Below are positions 2,735 through 58,590 of a stretch of 64,000 nucleotides of DNA, piece after piece; positions within the stretch are counted from its first letter, which is position 1, and the number at the start of each line of letters is the position of its first letter. The stretch is from contig CAYFLK010000006.1 of assembly GCA_964344035.1 (NCBI GenBank), positions 26,162 through 90,161 of the forward strand, in the 5' to 3' direction. The position numbers and the translations under genes are program-made. Source of the DNA: an uncultured Pseudomonadota bacterium (GTDB lineage Bacteria; SAR324; NAC60-12). The notes under the pieces are model-generated. The model saw only the letters and a program-made list of their open reading frames with translations, ran no database searches and had not been told where the DNA came from.

Positions 2735-3400
2735 TTAACTATGAGCGTGGGACCGACCACGCCACCACCAGTGCAGTTTCCTGCAATTAAACCATAACAG
2801 GGCGCCTTCCATCATTTTCGGCCATTGCACGGCCGAAATCCTCTCCTGTCCCATCAAGTGATAAATCAGGGTCGCGAGGATGGTGTCATGGGTCACCTCG
2901 ATGTGAACCTTCCCTGGAGCAGGCGGGTCTGAAAAAAACGATTCAAGCAGGATTCGCGATCCATCGGACGTTTCAGTGTGTCCCCTGAGCGACTCCAAGC
3001 TGAGCATGCGGTTGACCAGATCGAGCGGATCATGATCCTTGAATTCACGCAACGCGGTTTCCACATTGCTGATATATGCGCCTGGTTCCCCCAGTGCGGG
3101 GTTGTGCAGGACCGATAAATCCATGCCAGCACCATCGATCATGGCTTGTGCTGTCTGCATGCAGCGGATCGAGGAACTGGATGAAACCCGCGCAATCCGT
3201 CTTCCCCAGTACCTGCCGACTTGCCGGGCATATTCGATCCCTTCAGCATTGAGTTCAATCCCGGAACCAAACTTGCCTGCAAGCATGGGTGGACGTATCG
3301 AATGGCGAGTGAACAGCACCACTCCGGAACCACCGGGAAAGTCCTCATGACTGGGAAGAATTTCCGGTCTTGCCGGGTCATTGTAATACAGGGCTTTCAT
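2735..3400 (-). CDS. histidine phosphatase (phosphoglycerate mutase-like) family protein
   Basis: N-terminal 'LFTRHSIR' matches the RHG catalytic motif; about 220 aa. Confidence 0.55.
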   Translation of the reverse strand: MKALYYNDPARPEILPSHEDFPGGSGVVLFTRHSIRPPMLAGKFGSGIELNAEGIEYARQVGRYWGRRIARVSSSSSIRCMQTAQAMIDGAGMDLSVLHNPALGEPGAYISNVETALREFKDHDPLDLVNRMLSLESLRGHTETSDGSRILLESFFSDPPAPGKVHIEVTHDTILATLIYHLMGQERISAVQWPKMMEGALLWFNCRKLHWWWRGRSHAHS

Positions 3401-25217: not shown

Positions 25218-26348
25218 TTATTCCGCAAGTGCGGTTTGGATTTCCCTCAACACCTCTTCGTGGGTTTCCGACTCCTTCGCTTTTGCCAACGCAAAGCGGG
25301 CATCATTGTGCGGGATTCGTCCAAGGCCCCACGCGGAATGCGCCCGGACCAGCGGTTCAGTGTCCCGGAGTCCCAGTTTCAGCGCGGGAATGGCGTCCGT
25401 ATGGCCCCAGTTTCCCAGCGCAACCGCAACATTGCGTAATAGCCCTTTTCTTTTTGCACGCAACAGCGGGCTTTTTTTGAAACGCTTTTTGAATGTCTCC
25501 GGAGCGAGACGCATCAGTGCAGGCAGTTCCGGGACAACTTCACCGGGGCCGGGTTTGAATTTCGGATTTTCTGAAACCGGGGGGCGTTTGTTCCACGGGC
25601 AGACTTCCTGGCAGACATCGCAGCCGAAAATCCTGTTTCCCATTTTCTCCCGCAGTTCCGCGGGAATCGCACCCTTTAGTTCAATTGTTAAGTAGGAAAT
25701 ACAGCGGCGCGCGTCCAATTCCCGTTCAGCGATGATGGCATCTGTCGGGCAGGCATCGATACAACGCGTGCAGCTCCCGCAGTCCACGCGGGTGAAAGGT
25801 GAGGAAGGAACGAGGGGAAAATCTACCAGCAGTTCCGCGAGAAAAAACCAGGACCCTTTTTTCCAGTGGATCAGGTTTGTGTGTTTGCCAATCCAACCCA
25901 AGCCGGCGCGGTGCGCGTATTCCCGTTCCAGCAGCGGGCCTGAATCGACGTATGCGCGGCTTTTACTCCCGACGCCCAGTTCTTCGTGGAGAAATTGCCT
26001 GAGCGCTTCAAGTTTTTCATTGGCCACGTCATGGTAATCCTCCCCCCAAGCGTATCGGCTGACCCGTCCCCGTGAAGGTTCGGAGGATTCGGAATGAGGG
26101 GAATCAGCGGTGTAGTAATTAAGTCCGAGGCTGATCAAAAACTTGGTTTCGGGAAGAAGACCGCGAGGGTCTTTTTTCAGTGGCAGGTGACGTTCAAGAT
26201 ACGACATTTTCCCAGCATATCCTTTCACCAGCCATTCCCGGTATATCCCGTGCGTCAGGCTTGGTGAAACCGGAATCATCCCCACCAGGTCAAAGCCCAG
26301 TTCCCCGGCCCTGCCCCGGATCGCTTCCGTAATGGCCGCCCGGTCCAT
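25218..26348 (-). CDS. queG: tRNA epoxyqueuosine reductase QueG
   Basis: Two 4Fe-4S ferredoxin motifs (CGSCTRCIDACP, CDVCQEVCP) and C-terminal HEAT-like repeats; 376 aa. Confidence 0.9.
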   Translation of the reverse strand: MDRAAITEAIRGRAGELGFDLVGMIPVSPSLTHGIYREWLVKGYAGKMSYLERHLPLKKDPRGLLPETKFLISLGLNYYTADSPHSESSEPSRGRVSRYAWGEDYHDVANEKLEALRQFLHEELGVGSKSRAYVDSGPLLEREYAHRAGLGWIGKHTNLIHWKKGSWFFLAELLVDFPLVPSSPFTRVDCGSCTRCIDACPTDAIIAERELDARRCISYLTIELKGAIPAELREKMGNRIFGCDVCQEVCPWNKRPPVSENPKFKPGPGEVVPELPALMRLAPETFKKRFKKSPLLRAKRKGLLRNVAVALGNWGHTDAIPALKLGLRDTEPLVRAHSAWGLGRIPHNDARFALAKAKESETHEEVLREIQTALAE

Positions 26349-50695: not shown

Positions 50696-51565
50696 ATGAC
50701 CAGGAACAACACGGACAAGATGGGGACCATCATCGGGCTTATTTCGGGGGCCGTCTTCATCCTTTTCGGTATCCTTTGGCCGATTGAATACTCCAACCTG
50801 GCGCTGATCCTTGGAGACGGGTATGAATCGGACAACCCACAACTGCAGATGATGTTGAAAGTCGCCCGCTTCTTTGACGTCAAATCCGTGTTTATCGTCA
50901 TCGGGGGGACGTTTTCGGCAACCTTCATCGCCTTTCCCTACAAAAAAACCCTGCGCAGTTTCCGCAGCATGGGCAAGGTCCTCTCCGCGGATCATTCCGA
51001 AATCGAGGCGGAAGACGTCTATGAACAGGCGCGAACGATAGGTGAAAAGCGTTTTCATGGCCGGCGTTTGACCAATGAGGACCTGAACAGCCTCACCAAC
51101 CCCTTCATGCGCCGCTGGATTGAAGGGCTGATCGTGCGGGAACAGGTCCCGGAAGAAATGCTCAATGAAATCATCCGCTCGGAAATCGAGATGTATGAAC
51201 ACCGCGCGGATGAAGAGATTGAAATAATAGAGTTCATGAGCACAGCCGCCCCGGCGTTCGGGATGATGGGGACAATCGTCGGGCTGGTGCTGATGCTGGC
51301 GGAAACAGGCAGCATCCGCGCCGTGATGCAGTCAATGTCGATTGCGATGCTCACCACGCTGTATGGAGTGATAATCGCTAATTTGATCCTGCAGCCGCTG
51401 GCCTCAAAGAGAAAACAACTGAAGGAATCGAACAGGGTGCTGATGGAAATGATCCGCGAAAGCGTCCAGTGCATTGCGCGACGCGACGCGCCTTACGCGA
51501 TGCTGCAGGAACTGTCACTGTTCCTGCCCGCAAAGCGGCTCGATTTCGACCAACAATACCAATAA
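50696..51565 (+). CDS. MotA/PomA-like proton-channel stator protein
   Basis: Four transmembrane segments with a cytoplasmic acidic loop; 'AAPAFGMMGTIVGLV' matches the MotA TM3 'LPAFGIVAAVMG'. Confidence 0.8.
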   Translation: MTRNNTDKMGTIIGLISGAVFILFGILWPIEYSNLALILGDGYESDNPQLQMMLKVARFFDVKSVFIVIGGTFSATFIAFPYKKTLRSFRSMGKVLSADHSEIEAEDVYEQARTIGEKRFHGRRLTNEDLNSLTNPFMRRWIEGLIVREQVPEEMLNEIIRSEIEMYEHRADEEIEIIEFMSTAAPAFGMMGTIVGLVLMLAETGSIRAVMQSMSIAMLTTLYGVIIANLILQPLASKRKQLKESNRVLMEMIRESVQCIARRDAPYAMLQELSLFLPAKRLDFDQQYQ

Positions 51566-51574
51566 TTCCGGCTG

Positions 51575-53143
51575 ATGCTGGGGCTGAAAAAAAAGAAGGC
51601 CAGGGAAGTACGCTGGTTGATCACGTTTGCCGATCTGATCACCCTGCTGTTCTGTTTTTTTGTTTACCTGTCGCTGTTCAGCAAACCAAGCGTCAGCCTG
51701 CAAACAAGGTTCAGGATCACCGAACAGGCCCTGCTGGTTTTGAAGGAAGCCCTGCCAGCATCCGTGATCTCCGGAATGCAGTCGCTGAGCGGCCTTATCT
51801 TTAACGGAGAGCAGGTTTTTTATGAGGGAGTTGAATCCTGGATCGGCAAGGACGACTCGGCAAAATTCCGCAGCCAAATCGTGCTGGAAAGCATCGCGGA
51901 TGATGTGGTGGATGAATCCGGGCGGGTGGCATGGGTGGAAGTCATCCTCAGCGAACCGGTGCAGGAAGACCTGAAGGTCCCCCTGTTTTTCAGCGGGATG
52001 GCGCGCAGGGGTCCGGATAACCAGGAATTGTGCACTGATGAGGGGTTGACCCGCGCTGACGAAAGCACACAGGGGTTCGATTATTTGCTTTCCCGGGAAT
52101 CGATTTCCATCGAAAGCGGTGAGACAACCGGTAGGATACCGATCTGCATCATTGACGATGAACTTTACGAGGGGACCGAATCCATCCGCGTCCAGATCGG
52201 AAACGTCCGCGGCAACGTCGAGCGCGGAACCATCATTTCGAAAAACGTACTCATTCATGACAATGAACCGCCGCCGAGGGCGAGTTTCAATATTGATCGC
52301 CGCGATATTTTCAAAGGGATCGTCAGCCTCACCGTCCAACTCGACCGCGTAAGCGGCACCACCACCGAGATCCCTGTTTCATTCAAAGGTACCGCATACG
52401 AGGGCGTTGATTTCCGCCTGATCGACCCCCCGGTGATCAGGATATTTCCCTACACGGAAAAAGGCTCGATCCAGCTTGAGATCATGCAGGATGAAGTGCC
52501 TCTCTACGCAACGCGCACCTTGCTTGTCGAAATGAACGAAAAGGTCATGCGCAACGTGCGGAGCGGGGGAGTTTCCCGCCAGGTGAACTCCATAATCGGC
52601 GCGCTAGAGATGAAAGACTGCAGCGGCATCCACCGTTTTTTAAAGGAAAACCACGGGGAATTTGCCGCGTTTGAACTGAATGCGAGCAAATCCCGCTGCA
52701 TCCTCATTCTGCCTTCCGAGTTCCTTTTCAAAAGCGGTTCCGCCGACCTCAAACCGGAAAACCTGCGGCGTTTGAAAAAATTCCTCGGAGAAATCCGGGA
52801 CCGTTACGAACTGGAAGGAGACGCGATCCGGGTGGAAGGTCACACCGATGACGTGCCGCTAGGGAAGCGCGCGGAATACCGGAACAACTGGGAACTTTCA
52901 GTCGCGCGGGCCACAAACATCGGGGTGTTCATGATGGAAAAAATCGGCTATGTTCCCGAACTCCTATCCATTTCCGGATATGCTGACACGCGCCCGCGTG
53001 TTTCGTACCGGGACTCGGAAGGACGCCGGAAAGACCGCAAGATGTTGCGGGAAGCACGCAGTGCGAACAGGCGCGTGGAGATTATTTTCACCCGACCCCC
53101 TCAGAAGGAGCGAACCCGCCGTTTTTTCCCTGACACGGAATGA
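51575..53143 (+). CDS. MotB-like protein with two Calx-beta-like periplasmic domains and C-terminal OmpA/MotB peptidoglycan-binding domain
   Basis: 'WLITFADLITLLFCFF' MotB plug/transmembrane segment with conserved Asp; 'IIDDELYEGTESIRVQIGNVRGNVERG' Calx-beta motif; OmpA-like C-terminus 'WELSVARATNI...ANRRVEI'. Confidence 0.75.
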   Translation: MLGLKKKKAREVRWLITFADLITLLFCFFVYLSLFSKPSVSLQTRFRITEQALLVLKEALPASVISGMQSLSGLIFNGEQVFYEGVESWIGKDDSAKFRSQIVLESIADDVVDESGRVAWVEVILSEPVQEDLKVPLFFSGMARRGPDNQELCTDEGLTRADESTQGFDYLLSRESISIESGETTGRIPICIIDDELYEGTESIRVQIGNVRGNVERGTIISKNVLIHDNEPPPRASFNIDRRDIFKGIVSLTVQLDRVSGTTTEIPVSFKGTAYEGVDFRLIDPPVIRIFPYTEKGSIQLEIMQDEVPLYATRTLLVEMNEKVMRNVRSGGVSRQVNSIIGALEMKDCSGIHRFLKENHGEFAAFELNASKSRCILILPSEFLFKSGSADLKPENLRRLKKFLGEIRDRYELEGDAIRVEGHTDDVPLGKRAEYRNNWELSVARATNIGVFMMEKIGYVPELLSISGYADTRPRVSYRDSEGRRKDRKMLREARSANRRVEIIFTRPPQKERTRRFFPDTE

Positions 53144-54561
53144 TGGATTTCGGATTTCGGATTTCGGATTTCGGATCAAAAGCAGGGATCAGAAATCAGG
53201 AAACATTGAGAGAAATCAGAAACCGGAACCCAGGAACAAGGAATAAGCCCGAACGCCCGCGGAGAGCGAGCTTTTTTGTTCTGTTCGCGCTTGCAGTGCA
53301 TGCGGCCGCGTTTGATGCTGGAAACACTATCCGCGCTCAGACACGCGAAGCAAAAAACACCCCGCCCCCAATAACCGATCTACCCCTGCGGCAGCAGCCT
53401 CCTCCTCCACGCCCGGGAGTGCTCCAGGAAATACTCGTGGTGCGCACTTCCCCCGGCATCGTCAGGCATGCCGAAGGAGTGCTGAGGTTTCAGGTCAGCG
53501 CTTTCAGCCCGATCATGGTAGTCAAAGTAAACGGGTTCGCGCAGATGATCCGTCCGGGAGTGGATTTCATGGAGTACGAGGTTCCCTACCAGCTTCAACC
53601 GGGAAAAAACCGGTTCCTCGTTTTTGTGCAGACTCGTGAAGGTGAAGACGAGCGGGAAATCCTGCTTACATACCAGCCTCCACCGCTGGGAAAGCCCCGG
53701 GAACCGCTGCCACTGGATTTGCTCGTAATCCTCGGACAGACCGAAAGCGACAACATGCTTCAGTCACCGGATGGTTCCTCCCGCGTAAATGCGTCAAGGA
53801 ACGACTTGCTGCTTTCGCTGGGATACTTCCTCAAGCTGGACGAGCAGGCGCGATTTACGCTGAAAGGTCTTTTCAAATTCGACCGACAGAAAAACCGCGC
53901 CCTGGCCTCGGAGGAAACCCTGATGCGTCAACTGAGCGTGGAATACAGGCGCCCGGATTTATGGGAGATGGAGATGAATTTCGGGCTGGGACAAACCGTA
54001 CTCAGCGACAAAAGCACCGCTGCGTCACCGGCGCGGGAAGGAGAGTTTGTCAAGAACAGCGAAAGCGTCTATATTTTCGCGTCCGCGGTACGCGGGCTGG
54101 GGAAAACGAAGGAACTCAATGCCCGGGTTCAACTTGATATGCAGAACAAAATCGCCTCCAATAATGAAGACGGCATGCTGAACCTGGTATCCGTGGGAGG
54201 CAAATGGCTCGTCTACGCCTTTAAACTGAGCGGAGAAATTCAGTCCCGCGGAACAGGGTTTGAGGATACAAGCAAGGATTACCAGACAGCCGTGCTAAGC
54301 CTGAGGGTGACCTATCCGTGGAACCCGTGGATCTTCGATCTTCGTTTCAGGAACAGCGATCAGAAATACCGGGAACCCGATCCTGGTTCACGGATCACCC
54401 TGCATAACAAAAAGGATCATTTTTCGGTGCAAAGCAAATATGCCTATTCGAAAAACATGATCGCAGATTTTTCCTTGAACAGCATCAAACAAGGGTCAAA
54501 CGATACGACCAGGGCATACCGTGAAAATCAGATGGTCTTCCAGTTTATCTGGAGTTATTGA
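53140..54561 (+). CDS. predicted outer-membrane beta-barrel protein (start uncertain)
   Basis: Signal-like 'RRASFFVLFALAVHAAAF' about 45 codons after the annotated start; alternating beta-strand pattern; aromatic C-terminus '...FIWSY'. Confidence 0.55.
   Translation: MMDFGFRISDFGSKAGIRNQETLREIRNRNPGTRNKPERPRRASFFVLFALAVHAAAFDAGNTIRAQTREAKNTPPPITDLPLRQQPPPPRPGVLQEILVVRTSPGIVRHAEGVLRFQVSAFSPIMVVKVNGFAQMIRPGVDFMEYEVPYQLQPGKNRFLVFVQTREGEDEREILLTYQPPPLGKPREPLPLDLLVILGQTESDNMLQSPDGSSRVNASRNDLLLSLGYFLKLDEQARFTLKGLFKFDRQKNRALASEETLMRQLSVEYRRPDLWEMEMNFGLGQTVLSDKSTAASPAREGEFVKNSESVYIFASAVRGLGKTKELNARVQLDMQNKIASNNEDGMLNLVSVGGKWLVYAFKLSGEIQSRGTGFEDTSKDYQTAVLSLRVTYPWNPWIFDLRFRNSDQKYREPDPGSRITLHNKKDHFSVQSKYAYSKNMIADFSLNSIKQGSNDTTRAYRENQMVFQFIWSY
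53145..53172 (+). repeat. heptanucleotide tandem repeat (GGATTTC)x4 at the 5' end of the downstream ORF
   Basis: Perfect 7-nt repeat read directly; followed by AGAAATCAG-rich low-complexity sequence. Confidence 0.85.
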
Positions 54562-55144: not shown

Positions 55145-56344
55145 ATGAGCGTATCACAAACATCCGCGAACCGGTTCTCCACACCATCACTGCTGCGTCT
55201 GGGTTTCAGGCCTTTTTTTCTTGGGGCCGGAACAGTCGCGGTAGTGTTCATGGGAATTTGGATGGGAGTTTACGGGTATGGCTGGTCGGTTTCTTTTCCA
55301 AACATGTCCCCGATCCACTGGCACGCGCATGAAATGCTTTTTGGCTATACCCTCGCGGTGATTGCCGGGTTTCTGCTCACCGCGGCGGTAAACTGGACCG
55401 GTCATGACACCGCGAACGGATTTCCCCTATTTGTGATGTTTGTGTTCTGGCTGGCAGCCCGGGTTTCTTCAATCGGCATTGCACCGTATGCAGCGACAGT
55501 GATGATGATCGCGGACCTCGCGTTCTGGCTGCTTTTAACCGTCGCTGTCATGAGGCCTATCATCAAAGTGCGACAGTGGCGCCAAAGCGGAATCATGGCC
55601 AAGCTGGTTTTGCTCGGGTTAGCAAATTTCTCTTTTTATGCCGGGGTTTTCGGATGGGTTGAGGAAGGCATCCGCTGGGGATTGTACGGTGGTCTGTACC
55701 TGATAATCGGGCTGGTGCTGACCATGGGACGAAGAGTCATCCCTTTTTTCACCGAAAGGGGAGTGGGTCACGAGGTGCAGCTGAAAAACCGGGCCTGGTT
55801 GGATTGGACCGCGGCACCGCTCTTTTTGCTGTTTTTTGTTTTTGAACTGCTCAGTCCTGGTTCGGTTTTTTCCGCAAACCTCGCGCTGGCACTGTTCTTC
55901 CTGCATTCCATCCGACTCCAGGGCTGGTTCACCGATGGCATCCGGAAGAAGCCCCTGCTCTGGAGCCTCTACCTCGCCTACGCCTTCATCGTCTCCGGGT
56001 TTGCTCTGCTCGCGGGAGGTTATTATGTTAGCTGGAACCCCTTCCTCGCGGTACACGCCTTCGCGGTTGGAGGGATCGGGGTGTTGACGCTGAGTATGAT
56101 GTCCCGTGTTGCCCTCGGGCACACCGGGCGTAATGTCCACCAGGCCCCACGGGTGTTGACCCTCGCATTCGCCAGTATCAACGCGGGTTCGTTCTTCCGG
56201 GTGTTCGTCCCCCTGTTCATGCCCGCCGAATATGCGCTTTGGATCGGGGCATCCCAGGCGTTCTGGATCATCGCGTTCTCCCTGTTTGTTGTCACCTTTT
56301 ACCCGATCCTCACCCGGCCACGAATCGATGGACGCTACGGTTGA
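55145..56344 (+). CDS. nnrS: NnrS family heme-copper membrane protein (NO-response)
   Basis: 'LGFRPFFLGAG' NnrS N-terminal signature; about 12 transmembrane segments; 399 aa. Confidence 0.85.
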   Translation: MSVSQTSANRFSTPSLLRLGFRPFFLGAGTVAVVFMGIWMGVYGYGWSVSFPNMSPIHWHAHEMLFGYTLAVIAGFLLTAAVNWTGHDTANGFPLFVMFVFWLAARVSSIGIAPYAATVMMIADLAFWLLLTVAVMRPIIKVRQWRQSGIMAKLVLLGLANFSFYAGVFGWVEEGIRWGLYGGLYLIIGLVLTMGRRVIPFFTERGVGHEVQLKNRAWLDWTAAPLFLLFFVFELLSPGSVFSANLALALFFLHSIRLQGWFTDGIRKKPLLWSLYLAYAFIVSGFALLAGGYYVSWNPFLAVHAFAVGGIGVLTLSMMSRVALGHTGRNVHQAPRVLTLAFASINAGSFFRVFVPLFMPAEYALWIGASQAFWIIAFSLFVVTFYPILTRPRIDGRYG

Positions 56345-57732: not shown

Positions 57733-58392
57733 TCACTTGGCTGGATCCGCGACTTTCAAGGCTGCTTTGAGGAGGGGGAGGATGCAGCCGCTGTACTCGA
57801 CCCTGCCATCAGGCATAGTGGTGTTGCAGAGTAATGAACCGGTCATTTCCGCTTTGTCGAGGTTGGCGCCTTTCAGGGTTGCCGATTTCAGGTCCGCACC
57901 CTGCAGGTTGGCGCCGCGCAGGTTGCTGATGCCGAAATCCGCCACCGACAAATTGGCGTCTTCAAGATCGGCGCCCTGCAAGTCCGCTCCAAGCAGGACC
58001 GCTCCACGCAAATCGGCGGATTTGAGGTTTGCGACTCCCAGTTCCGCGACAGACATGTTCGCCCCTCCCAGCATCGCGCCTTTAAGGTCCGCCCCACGCA
58101 GGTCGGTCCCGCGCATGTTCGCGCCTTCCAGGTTTGCGCCGCGCAGGTTTGCTCCCTGCAGGTTCGCCCCGCGAAGGTTTGCCCCCTGCAGTTCAGCGGA
58201 AGCGAGATCGGCCCCGCTGAGGTTTACGTTCGGAAGATTCACCTGCCTAAGGTCTGACTTGGCCAGATCGCACTTGACGCATTCAAGCTTGCTCTGCAAC
58301 CGTTCCAGGTCTCCGGGCTCCACGGCTACTGCCCACGAACCCCATGCCAGTGTGAACGGGACCCACACCAGCAACAAAAACTGTTTCCTCAT
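57733..58392 (-). CDS. secreted pentapeptide-repeat protein
   Basis: About 30 consecutive A(D/N)LxG pentapeptides ('ANLRGANLQGANLRGANLEGANMRG...'); signal peptide. Confidence 0.85.
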   Translation of the reverse strand: MRKQFLLLVWVPFTLAWGSWAVAVEPGDLERLQSKLECVKCDLAKSDLRQVNLPNVNLSGADLASAELQGANLRGANLQGANLRGANLEGANMRGTDLRGADLKGAMLGGANMSVAELGVANLKSADLRGAVLLGADLQGADLEDANLSVADFGISNLRGANLQGADLKSATLKGANLDKAEMTGSLLCNTTMPDGRVEYSGCILPLLKAALKVADPAK

Positions 58393-58590
58393 CGTTAGTC
58401 TGTTTGAATGAAATAGCACAAATTTTACCACTTTATCGTTTTTACCGATAAAGTCCAGAAAGATGTAAGGAGTTGGATGAATTGATACTCAAATAATGTG
58501 TTTAAATCAGTGCGCTTTTTTTAATTGTGCCAAAATGTGATAGTTTTGGTTTTTGGAAAAGACAGATACCCAAAACCGGATATTCCGTCG

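Follow-up and report, generated by a model that had tools for sequence, protein, structure and literature searches.

A GGATTTC heptamer array in the motB-porin spacer of a SAR324-type bacterium and its likeness to a widespread class of heptamer repeats

We analysed a 64,000-nt stretch (positions 26,162 to 90,161) of contig CAYFLK010000006.1 from an uncultured SAR324-type bacterium (assembly GCA_964344035.1), hereafter the window, in which a perfect array of the heptamer GGATTTC lies between a motB/ompA-like gene (motB below) and a gene for a porin-like outer-membrane protein (Table 1). These two genes are preceded by a MotA/ExbB-like gene, and the gene order motA-motB-porin is conserved among SAR324-type relatives. 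An earlier note, made from the sequence alone, had proposed that the array is a phase-variation switch at the 5' end of the porin-like gene. Our analysis suggests a different reading, in which the array is probably a spacer or hairpin between two operon genes rather than a fast frameshift switch.

Table 1. Features of the motA-motB-porin region, in window coordinates (ORF, open reading frame; AF2, AlphaFold model)
Feature	Coordinates	Strand	Basis
MotA/ExbB-like gene	50696-51565		Pfam
motB/ompA-like gene, 522 aa, with MotB_plug, Calx-beta and OmpA domains; TGA stop at 53141-53143	51575-53143	+	ORF list, Pfam
Porin-like outer-membrane protein; longest ORF, 473 aa, C-terminus ...FIWSY	53140-54561	+	Homologues, AF2, Foldseek
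ATGATG, two in-frame ATGs overlapping the motB stop (ATGA, TGATG); candidate coupled porin starts	53140-53145	+	Sequence
Predicted imperfect RNA hairpin: left arm 53144-53177, loop 53178-53186, right arm 53187-53232	53144-53232	+	RNAfold
Perfect heptamer array (GGATTTC)x4.6	53145-53176	+	Sequence, Tandem Repeats Finder
Degenerate A-rich heptad tract (GATCAGA / AATCAGG / GAGAGAA / ATCAGAA / ACCGGAA ...)	53177-53250	+	Lag-7 identity, inverted-repeat pairs
AGGA (53198-53201), 4 nt, in-frame TTG (53206-53208); candidate alternative porin start 3' of the repeat	53198-53208	+	Sequence, fold
TGA ending the ORF from ATG 53140 at 3, 6 or 9 units; overlaps the TTG (TTGA)	53207-53209	+	Rebuilt sequences
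TAA ending the ORF from ATG 53140 at 2, 5 or 8 units	53244-53246	+	Rebuilt sequences
Hydrophobic signal-peptide core ASFFVLFALAVHAAAFD, residues 42-58 of the 473-aa ORF	53263-53313	+	AF2 helix; alignment with homologues' signal peptides

Four whole, perfect GGATTTC units occupy positions 53145-53172, exactly as the earlier note had described, and Tandem Repeats Finder extends the array to 53176 (period 7, 4.6 copies, 100% matches), giving a length of 32 nt with five GG runs. This is the sole perfect tandem array (period 5-12, at least three copies) within the window. The two-unit pattern was counted three times there, where 0.05 would be expected, and none of 100 shuffles reached this count. 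The array starts 1 nt past the TGA of the motB/ompA-like gene, with the junction TGA-t-GGATTTC, and GGATTTC arrays contain no stop codon in any of the six frames. Because the unit has only GG, with no tract of three or more G, a three-tetrad G-quadruplex is impossible and at most a weak two-tetrad structure is conceivable. A canonical -1 frameshift slippery site was rejected by inspection, as GGAUUUC departs from the X XXY YYZ pattern. The searchable literature held nothing relevant on the DNA repeat GGATTTC or its encoded peptides. Elsewhere in the window, a 15/30-nt tandem repeat at 58085-58191 (Tandem Repeats Finder) is an ordinary coding repeat in the minus-strand gene of a pentapeptide-repeat protein (57733-58431, ...ANLRGANLQGANLRGANLEG...).

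The label 'outer-membrane barrel' given to the downstream product in the earlier note is right, as judged from the structural model and its fold match. The protein has 79 homologues of ~414-466 aa, some with a Porin_4 domain and some named SAR324 cluster proteins. In an AlphaFold model built from 23 sequences (predicted local distance difference test, pLDDT, 70.7), residues 1-42 are disordered (pLDDT <50) and are followed by a helix at 42-58, a disordered proline-rich linker, a small beta-sandwich at 111-178 and a 14-strand barrel at 192-472. The best Foldseek match of this model is OmpG (2iwv, E 8.5e-9, template-modelling score 0.72 on target), with general porins next. An N-terminal signal peptide, a beta-barrel and a C-terminal aromatic residue, all expected of a porin, are present. 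Outer-membrane barrels use the Sec pathway; a twin-arginine (Tat) signal was considered and rejected, as RRASFF does not fit RRxFLK. The trio of a MotA/ExbB-like protein, a MotB_plug/OmpA protein and a 14-strand barrel with an N-terminal beta-sandwich (50696-54561 in the window) is conserved in SAR324-type genomes (L003-L010), and in the window its second member additionally carries the Calx-beta domain. Downstream of the trio, the relatives have a FecR-like gene, and the window has an NnrS gene (55145-56344).

The low-complexity tail AGAAATCAG that the earlier note had pointed out after the repeat proved to have a period of its own. Over the 74 nt 3' of the array (53177-53250), identity at lag 7 is 54%, versus ~30% at other lags, and this value was matched by none of 5000 shuffles; the tail is therefore a degenerate, decayed A-rich heptad array. 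It is roughly complementary to GGATTTC, forming inverted-repeat pairs (I1-I6 and I8) that are 71-91% complementary, and the best match to an inverted partner of the array is 15/21, i.e. the partner has decayed. Array and tail form a heptad-derived spacer of ~105 nt (53145-53250) between motB and the signal-peptide-coding part of the porin-like gene, and within this spacer the window repeat is best seen as the arm that stayed intact in an otherwise decayed inverted pair. Two GATC sites, 13 nt apart, lie at 53173-53194 (GGATCAAAAGCAGGGATC), on either side of the loop of the hairpin described next.

The RNA of positions 53138-53235 is predicted by RNAfold to form an imperfect hairpin of ~90 nt (-26.4 kcal/mol, z = -2.17; equally stable folds in 7 of 200 shuffles), which persists in folds of longer sequence. 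A hairpin of this kind could form in single-stranded DNA as well. The heptads make up its predicted left arm, and GAUCAGAAAUC, GAAAUC and GAAACCGGAA its right arm, which offers only about four complementary segments. The fold places AGGA-N4-UUG in an internal loop. When the number of units was varied in the folding model, the AGGA..TTG segment (AGGAAACAUUG) had a mean unpaired probability of 0.82 at four units and of 0.43-0.68 at the other counts folded, 1-3 and 5-8 (0.43-0.62 at 5-7 units), so that predicted, though not measured, accessibility is highest at the observed count. A promoter/terminator scan found no promoter-like site in the spacer, and an intrinsic terminator was rejected as the hairpin lacks a U-tract. 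A search of the region against Rfam returned only sub-threshold noise (mir-1290, SNORD42) and no family match, and alignment of the spacer with the related loci L003 and L004 gave no convincing homology past the end of motB.

The longest ORF of the porin-like gene spans the array, which thus lies ahead of the signal-peptide helix, and we agree with the earlier note that gain or loss of a single unit shifts this frame. When the region was rebuilt with 0-9 units, the ORF from ATG 53140 remained open into the porin only at 1, 4 or 7 units. The array bears on expression of the porin in this way only if translation starts upstream of it, and the canonical in-frame starts ahead of the hydrophobic core are just three, namely ATG 53140, ATG 53143 and TTG 53206. 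The first of these owes its existence to the last two codons of the motB-like gene, GAA-TGA. L003 and L004 share this ...GAA TGA ending of motB with the window, which indicates that the ATGA overlap at 53140 is inherited; in neither L003 nor L004 is GAATGA the porin start, and in L003 it opens only a 10-codon ORF. The porin ATG of L005 and L008 lies 8 nt past the motB stop, and the protein begins directly with the signal peptide. In L004, which belongs to the clade closest to the window, there is a 94-nt non-coding spacer ending in AGGAGG-N8-ATG. The sequence suggests that the called start of the L003 porin (P0002, 466 aa; region 3001-3140) is probably over-extended. L003 also has an in-frame TTG at 3070, from which MKRFLFLKWFLCLVLL... 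(MKRFLFLKWF...) begins with a normal signal peptide, and its sister proteins are called at 428-441 aa.

Scoring of Shine-Dalgarno (SD) sequences is uninformative on the start in the window, because the SD signal at gene starts is no stronger than background (medians -3.3 versus -3.0 kcal/mol). A comparable locus in another genome, L053, has the order stop, hairpin, SD, ATG, as in the stop-abutting placements described below; there, the frame is open through the whole heptad hairpin into a gene having its own SD-ATG beyond the hairpin. An open frame across such an element is therefore weak evidence of translation. We consider the upstream ATG and TTG 53206 roughly equally likely as the porin start, with the TTG slightly favoured. 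Depending on the start, the n-region of the signal peptide would have 21 or 43 residues, unusually long in either case, and its coding sequence derives from heptads.

No variation in copy number was found between assemblies, a comparison that the earlier note had suggested as a check on the proposed switch. Five of five assemblies from at least two sequencing runs have an identical unit count, although this is a small sample and assemblies report a consensus. Among them, L001 comes from a different sample and differs by one amino acid in the protein, yet matches the window at every base of the region; the array of L002 is identical too, and two more contigs encode the identical 473-aa product. 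An exact look-up in 15 billion proteins did not find the products expected from the TTG start (451 aa), from one unit (466 aa) or from seven units (480 aa). A metagenome scan for strain variants with the left flank plus one unit gave three matches, all of them chance hits to unrelated sequence.

A scan of species-representative genomes for (GGATTTC)x3 showed that such arrays are widespread, occurring in at least 120 genome stretches of at least 12 phyla. The groups include Verrucomicrobiota, Planctomycetota, Acidobacteriota, Chloroflexota, Bacteroidota, Patescibacteria, Gemmatimonadota, Nitrospirota, Desulfobacterota, Myxococcota, Bdellovibrionota and Pseudomonadota, as well as one metagenome-assembled genome (MAG) of the Heliobacteriaceae. 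We analysed 139 arrays among the matches listed (n = 134 for statistics of length and GG runs), in 865 kb of sequence. Array length has its mode at 31-34 nt (72 of 134) and a second peak at 26-27 nt; the former persists after correction for phase-dependent detection of arrays shorter than 27 nt. Exactly four GG runs are present in 87 of the 134 arrays. An inverted partner of GAAATCC type was found within 250 nt of 40-51 of the 139 arrays, versus 0-4 of 342 controls, mainly downstream of the GGATTTC arm (37 vs 9). In size and placement the window repeat matches these arrays, and it is best regarded as a member of the known class of intergenic heptamer repeats, here with a GGATTTC unit.

The preference for a period of seven extends beyond this unit. 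Perfect arrays in the 865 kb number 214 for period 7, 70 of them made of other units, versus 2-9 each for periods 5, 6, 8 and 9. In viral contigs, GGATTTCx3 occurs in 22 stretches and control heptads in 0, 4, 28 and 54, indicating that heptamer arrays are a general, motif-dependent phenomenon. Arrays of other heptamers (CATCGGA, CCTTGGC, GAATTTT, GGATTTG, AATCCGC) directly adjoin GGATTTC arrays at L015 (3860-3980), L035 (near 6650; reverse-complemented 1320-1353), L031, L054, L056 and L070. The Acidobacteria MAG SZAS-13 (JAFDVJ01) has dozens of arrays on many contigs (loci L036, L046, L053, L062, L066, L068, L073, L081, L107, L119 and L125). Three inverted pairs (L053 at 5123 and 7479, L125 at 6066) have the loop core ggacgcttcgatttcaaacgaa in common, which suggests a duplicated or mobile hairpin element, beside arrays with unrelated loops.

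Two placements of the arrays are recurrent. In 26 of 139 cases the array starts no more than 10 nt from the stop codon of a long ORF on the same strand, compared with 4 of 139 in flipped orientation and ~2% of random sites. Starts at ~5 nt or less from a same-strand stop, or overlapping it, were seen at L036, L039, L053, L062, L067, L068, L073, L081, L095, L103, L107, L115, L119, L121, L123 and L125. Some arrays overlap the stop codon itself (TGA|TTTCGG, TAG|GATTTC), and the phase of the junction varies, which means that the stop association is one of position and not of a fixed junction sequence. Stop-abutting arrays come from ~12 different genomes, and full-length Pfam matches were obtained for five of the ten upstream ORFs that were checked (BPD_transp_2, AI-2E transporter, VWA_CoxE, ABC-F, T2SSF). 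The window array is one more case of an array directly after a stop.

The other placement is inside genes. Forty arrays lie in frames that are open for at least 300 nt on both sides, with the coding strand mostly reading GAAATCC and encoding the hydrophilic peptide KSEIRNP. In-frame arrays or whole inverted pairs were noted in conserved housekeeping genes from several phyla (L013, L022, L038, L050, L056, L082, L089, L104 and L126), in most of which the coding strand gives the peptide KSEIRNPKSEI. Nine cases of in-frame arrays were checked against Pfam, and six of them fall within domain envelopes, namely those of isoleucyl-tRNA synthetase (IleRS; tRNA-synt_1), the 5'-nuclease of DNA polymerase I (Pol I), SecA_DEAD, PEP-utilizers_C, the DnaE finger and SNF2. 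Of the remainder, the L126 array lies between two UvrA domains, that of L013 towards the C-terminus of UvrA but outside any domain stretch reported for it, and that of L058 just ahead of a GDE_N domain. The Pol I array aligns as a clean 7-residue insertion relative to PDB entry 6vde, and the SecA array falls in a variable segment. A protein search with a synthetic KSEIRNP repeat returned small spurious ORFs only, because the query is short. Arrays lying in frame within essential genes cannot slip often, as this would be lethal, which counts against the motif as a contingency device in itself.

The frameshift switch of the earlier note can be weighed against this background. It would have the porin start at ATG 53140 or 53143 in coupling with motB termination, and slipped-strand mispairing would turn the porin on and off, for example in escape from phage or grazers. 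The array is indeed perfect, its unit length is not a multiple of three, the frame is open at 1, 4 and 7 units alone, the ATGA/TGATG overlap has the classical form for translational coupling, the gene encodes a surface barrel, and the arrangement at L039, where a start overlaps a stop just ahead of an array, is analogous. However, 4.6 units fall short of the tract length for high slippage rates, known heptamer switches having at least 11 (PMC12721329), and neither the five assemblies nor the protein collection holds a copy-number variant. The ATG is an ancestral by-product of the GAA-TGA end of motB that is left unused in relatives, whose orthologues start at the signal peptide. Moreover, TTG 53206 lies downstream of the array and would escape the frameshift; even at three units, where the short ORF ends in TTGA overlapping this TTG, porin expression could persist. 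The occurrence of the same arrays in frame within essential genes, and of stop-free elements that keep the frame open even ahead of a bona fide SD-ATG (L053), also speak against a switch. The inference of an on/off switch thus finds no support in the comparisons made here, and we regard it as the least probable of the readings considered here. A related possibility is that the repeat is untranslated and acts as a graded leader, as in the hmw genes of Haemophilus influenzae: slippage would vary the number of units, and added units would lengthen the hairpin and either sequester AGGA-TTG or alter processing by RNase III. A pyrimidine-rich left arm, a purine-rich right arm and a downstream surface-protein gene match the hmw anatomy, and the predicted drop in accessibility of the start from 0.82 at four units to 0.43-0.62 at five to seven would provide the gradation. 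Yet such a rheostat depends on copy-number variation, which was not observed, and the tract is short with a right arm of only a few complementary segments, making this reading quite improbable.

The array might, on the other hand, have no role at all. As selfish DNA or a mutational by-product, arrays would be made or inserted at a high rate and persist where harmless because they are stop-free, and this copy would simply sit in a spacer. Such an origin is consistent with the in-frame arrays in IleRS, Pol I, SecA, DnaE, SNF2 and UvrA of other phyla, located in loops and mostly in the KSEIRNP orientation, with the arrays of many other heptamer units that accompany GGATTTC, with the presence of control heptads in viral contigs (0-54 matches), and with the lack of any function found for the Xanthomonas arrays. 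But the stop-codon association is strong and orientation-specific (26 vs 4) and the size range is narrow, both of which argue for selection or a directed mechanism over pure drift, and the observed unit count coincides with the maximum of predicted start accessibility. We therefore consider a roleless by-product rather unlikely, if more to be reckoned with than the two readings above. A bolder proposal, to which we assign a low probability, is that (GGATTTC)4-5 is a discrete module of ~32 nt, produced or inserted by an active process in at least 12 phyla, the SAR324 copy having been co-opted as a porin leader and n-region. The stop-abutting placement in one orientation, the convergent pairs, the in-frame copies in loops and the stop-free frames would then point to an undescribed sequence-specific mechanism, which may be a mobile micro-element, templated repeat synthesis, or a conserved RNA or protein partner acting at translation termination.

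The reading that we prefer, tentatively and at slightly less than an even chance, is that the element is an intercistronic hairpin that tunes initiation or processing of the porin message and supplies its leader and n-region. The array would have arisen by insertion or slippage within a pre-existing spacer of ~100 nt, and we infer that it is co-transcribed with the operon. If the hairpin folds in the cell as predicted, it would uncouple porin translation from that of motB and so set porin output. It could do so by governing how accessible the AGGA-N4-TTG start within its internal loop is, or by being cleaved by a double-strand RNase in the manner of the H. influenzae hmw leader; the decayed arm may have come to serve as the arginine-rich n-region of the signal peptide. 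The constancy of the copy number on present evidence favours such a structural or regulatory spacer over a fast frameshift switch. Several observations weigh against this preference. The hairpin is only moderately more stable than shuffled sequences (z = -2.17) and lacks covariation support because all available copies are identical, and no regulatory role was found for the Xanthomonas arrays (PMC4692102). The frame from the stop-overlapping ATG is open throughout into the porin, gene callers chose 53140 or 53143 as the start, and the SD signal is weak throughout the genome of the window. At L039, a GTG overlaps the upstream TGA and is followed by an array and then by the N-terminus of a membrane protein (permease), so translation through such arrays is possible. 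Finally, the class statistics use crude ORF logic and many of the arrays come from one genome, SZAS-13; since greedy longest-ORF assignment to coding or intergenic classes is unreliable in GC-rich genomes, we relied on stop-codon distances, open-frame lengths and Pfam spot checks.

The case has a practical side for annotation, as pipelines run the porin ORF across a possibly untranslated repeat, and phase variation should not be assumed whenever a repeat lies at the 5' end of a surface-protein gene. More broadly, bacterial heptamer repeats are known to be over-represented and are still unexplained, and the present locus ties a marine SAR324-type operon to a testable cross-phylum pattern that combines a fixed size of ~32 nt, orientation-specific stop abutment, convergent pairs and in-frame copies in housekeeping genes. 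Should a common mechanism or binding partner lie behind this pattern, an old puzzle about simple-sequence repeats in bacteria would have its explanation.

Among the systems described previously, the closest in layout are the intergenic heptamers of Xanthomonas and Nostoc. The Xanthomonas GGGAATC repeat forms ~186 arrays per genome, mostly of four units and ~90% intergenic, located on average 28 nt behind the upstream ORF and including 70-75 convergent pairs; the authors found no regulatory role for it and considered phase variation unlikely (Rehm et al. 2015, PMC4692102). The same study cites the general over-representation of heptamer repeats together with the idea of polymerase slippage, and lists GGGGA(C/T)T, of the short tandemly repeated repetitive (STRR) type, as the intergenic heptamer of Nostoc (PMC4692102). 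The arrays studied here resemble both in the 7-nt unit, the modal number of about four units, the position close behind an upstream ORF (1 nt in the window), the strongly non-coding location, the frequent convergent inverted pairs, and a dispersed distribution unrelated to gene function. Unlike them, the window unit has GG and not GGG, the host is of the SAR324 type, and there is one copy in 64 kb.

In H. influenzae, the (ATCTTTC)n repeat of hmw1A is transcribed and, as the left arm, pairs with a purine-rich right arm in a long hairpin that RNase III cleaves, and strains never have fewer than 11 units (Nucleic Acids Research 2025, PMC12721329). The window shares with the hmw1A/hmw2A leader the pyrimidine-rich ...TTTC heptamers of the left arm, the purine-rich right arm, the long imperfect hairpin and a surface-protein gene downstream. 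However, the hmw leader is hypervariable, with 11 units or more, and is served by a promoter of its own, whereas that of the window has 4.6 units without variation seen, is intercistronic and abuts a stop, and processing by RNase III would apply here only by analogy.

A patchy distribution across phyla, with no known mechanism of transfer, has been described for the TAACTGA direct repeats of marine Beggiatoaceae, Cyanobacteria and Bacteroidetes, which are present in 2-6 copies shortly ahead of start codons, in operons with essential genes among their members (MacGregor 2015, PMC4679880). GGATTTC arrays are likewise heptamer repeats with patchy cross-phylum spread, but the unit differs; TAACTGA contains stops and is essentially never inverted, whereas GGATTTC is stop-free and often paired. 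Insertion into coding sequence recalls the Rickettsia palindromic elements, short palindromes reportedly described as in-frame 'selfish DNA in protein-coding genes' and said to be intergenic as well. They are unique sequences of ~100-150 bp confined to one genus. The wider GGATTTC class is similar in occurring both between genes and in frame in tolerated loops of conserved proteins, but it consists of 7-nt tandem arrays in many phyla, and the window copy lies outside a conserved domain. Lastly, the repetitive extragenic palindromes (REPs) and bacterial interspersed mosaic elements (BIMEs) of enterobacteria are intercistronic hairpins able to set the relative expression of flanking genes, and REPs are species-specific palindromes recognised by REP-associated tyrosine transposases (RAYTs). 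The window element is similarly a repetitive hairpin, as predicted, between operon genes, but it is built of a tandem heptamer and not of a palindrome.

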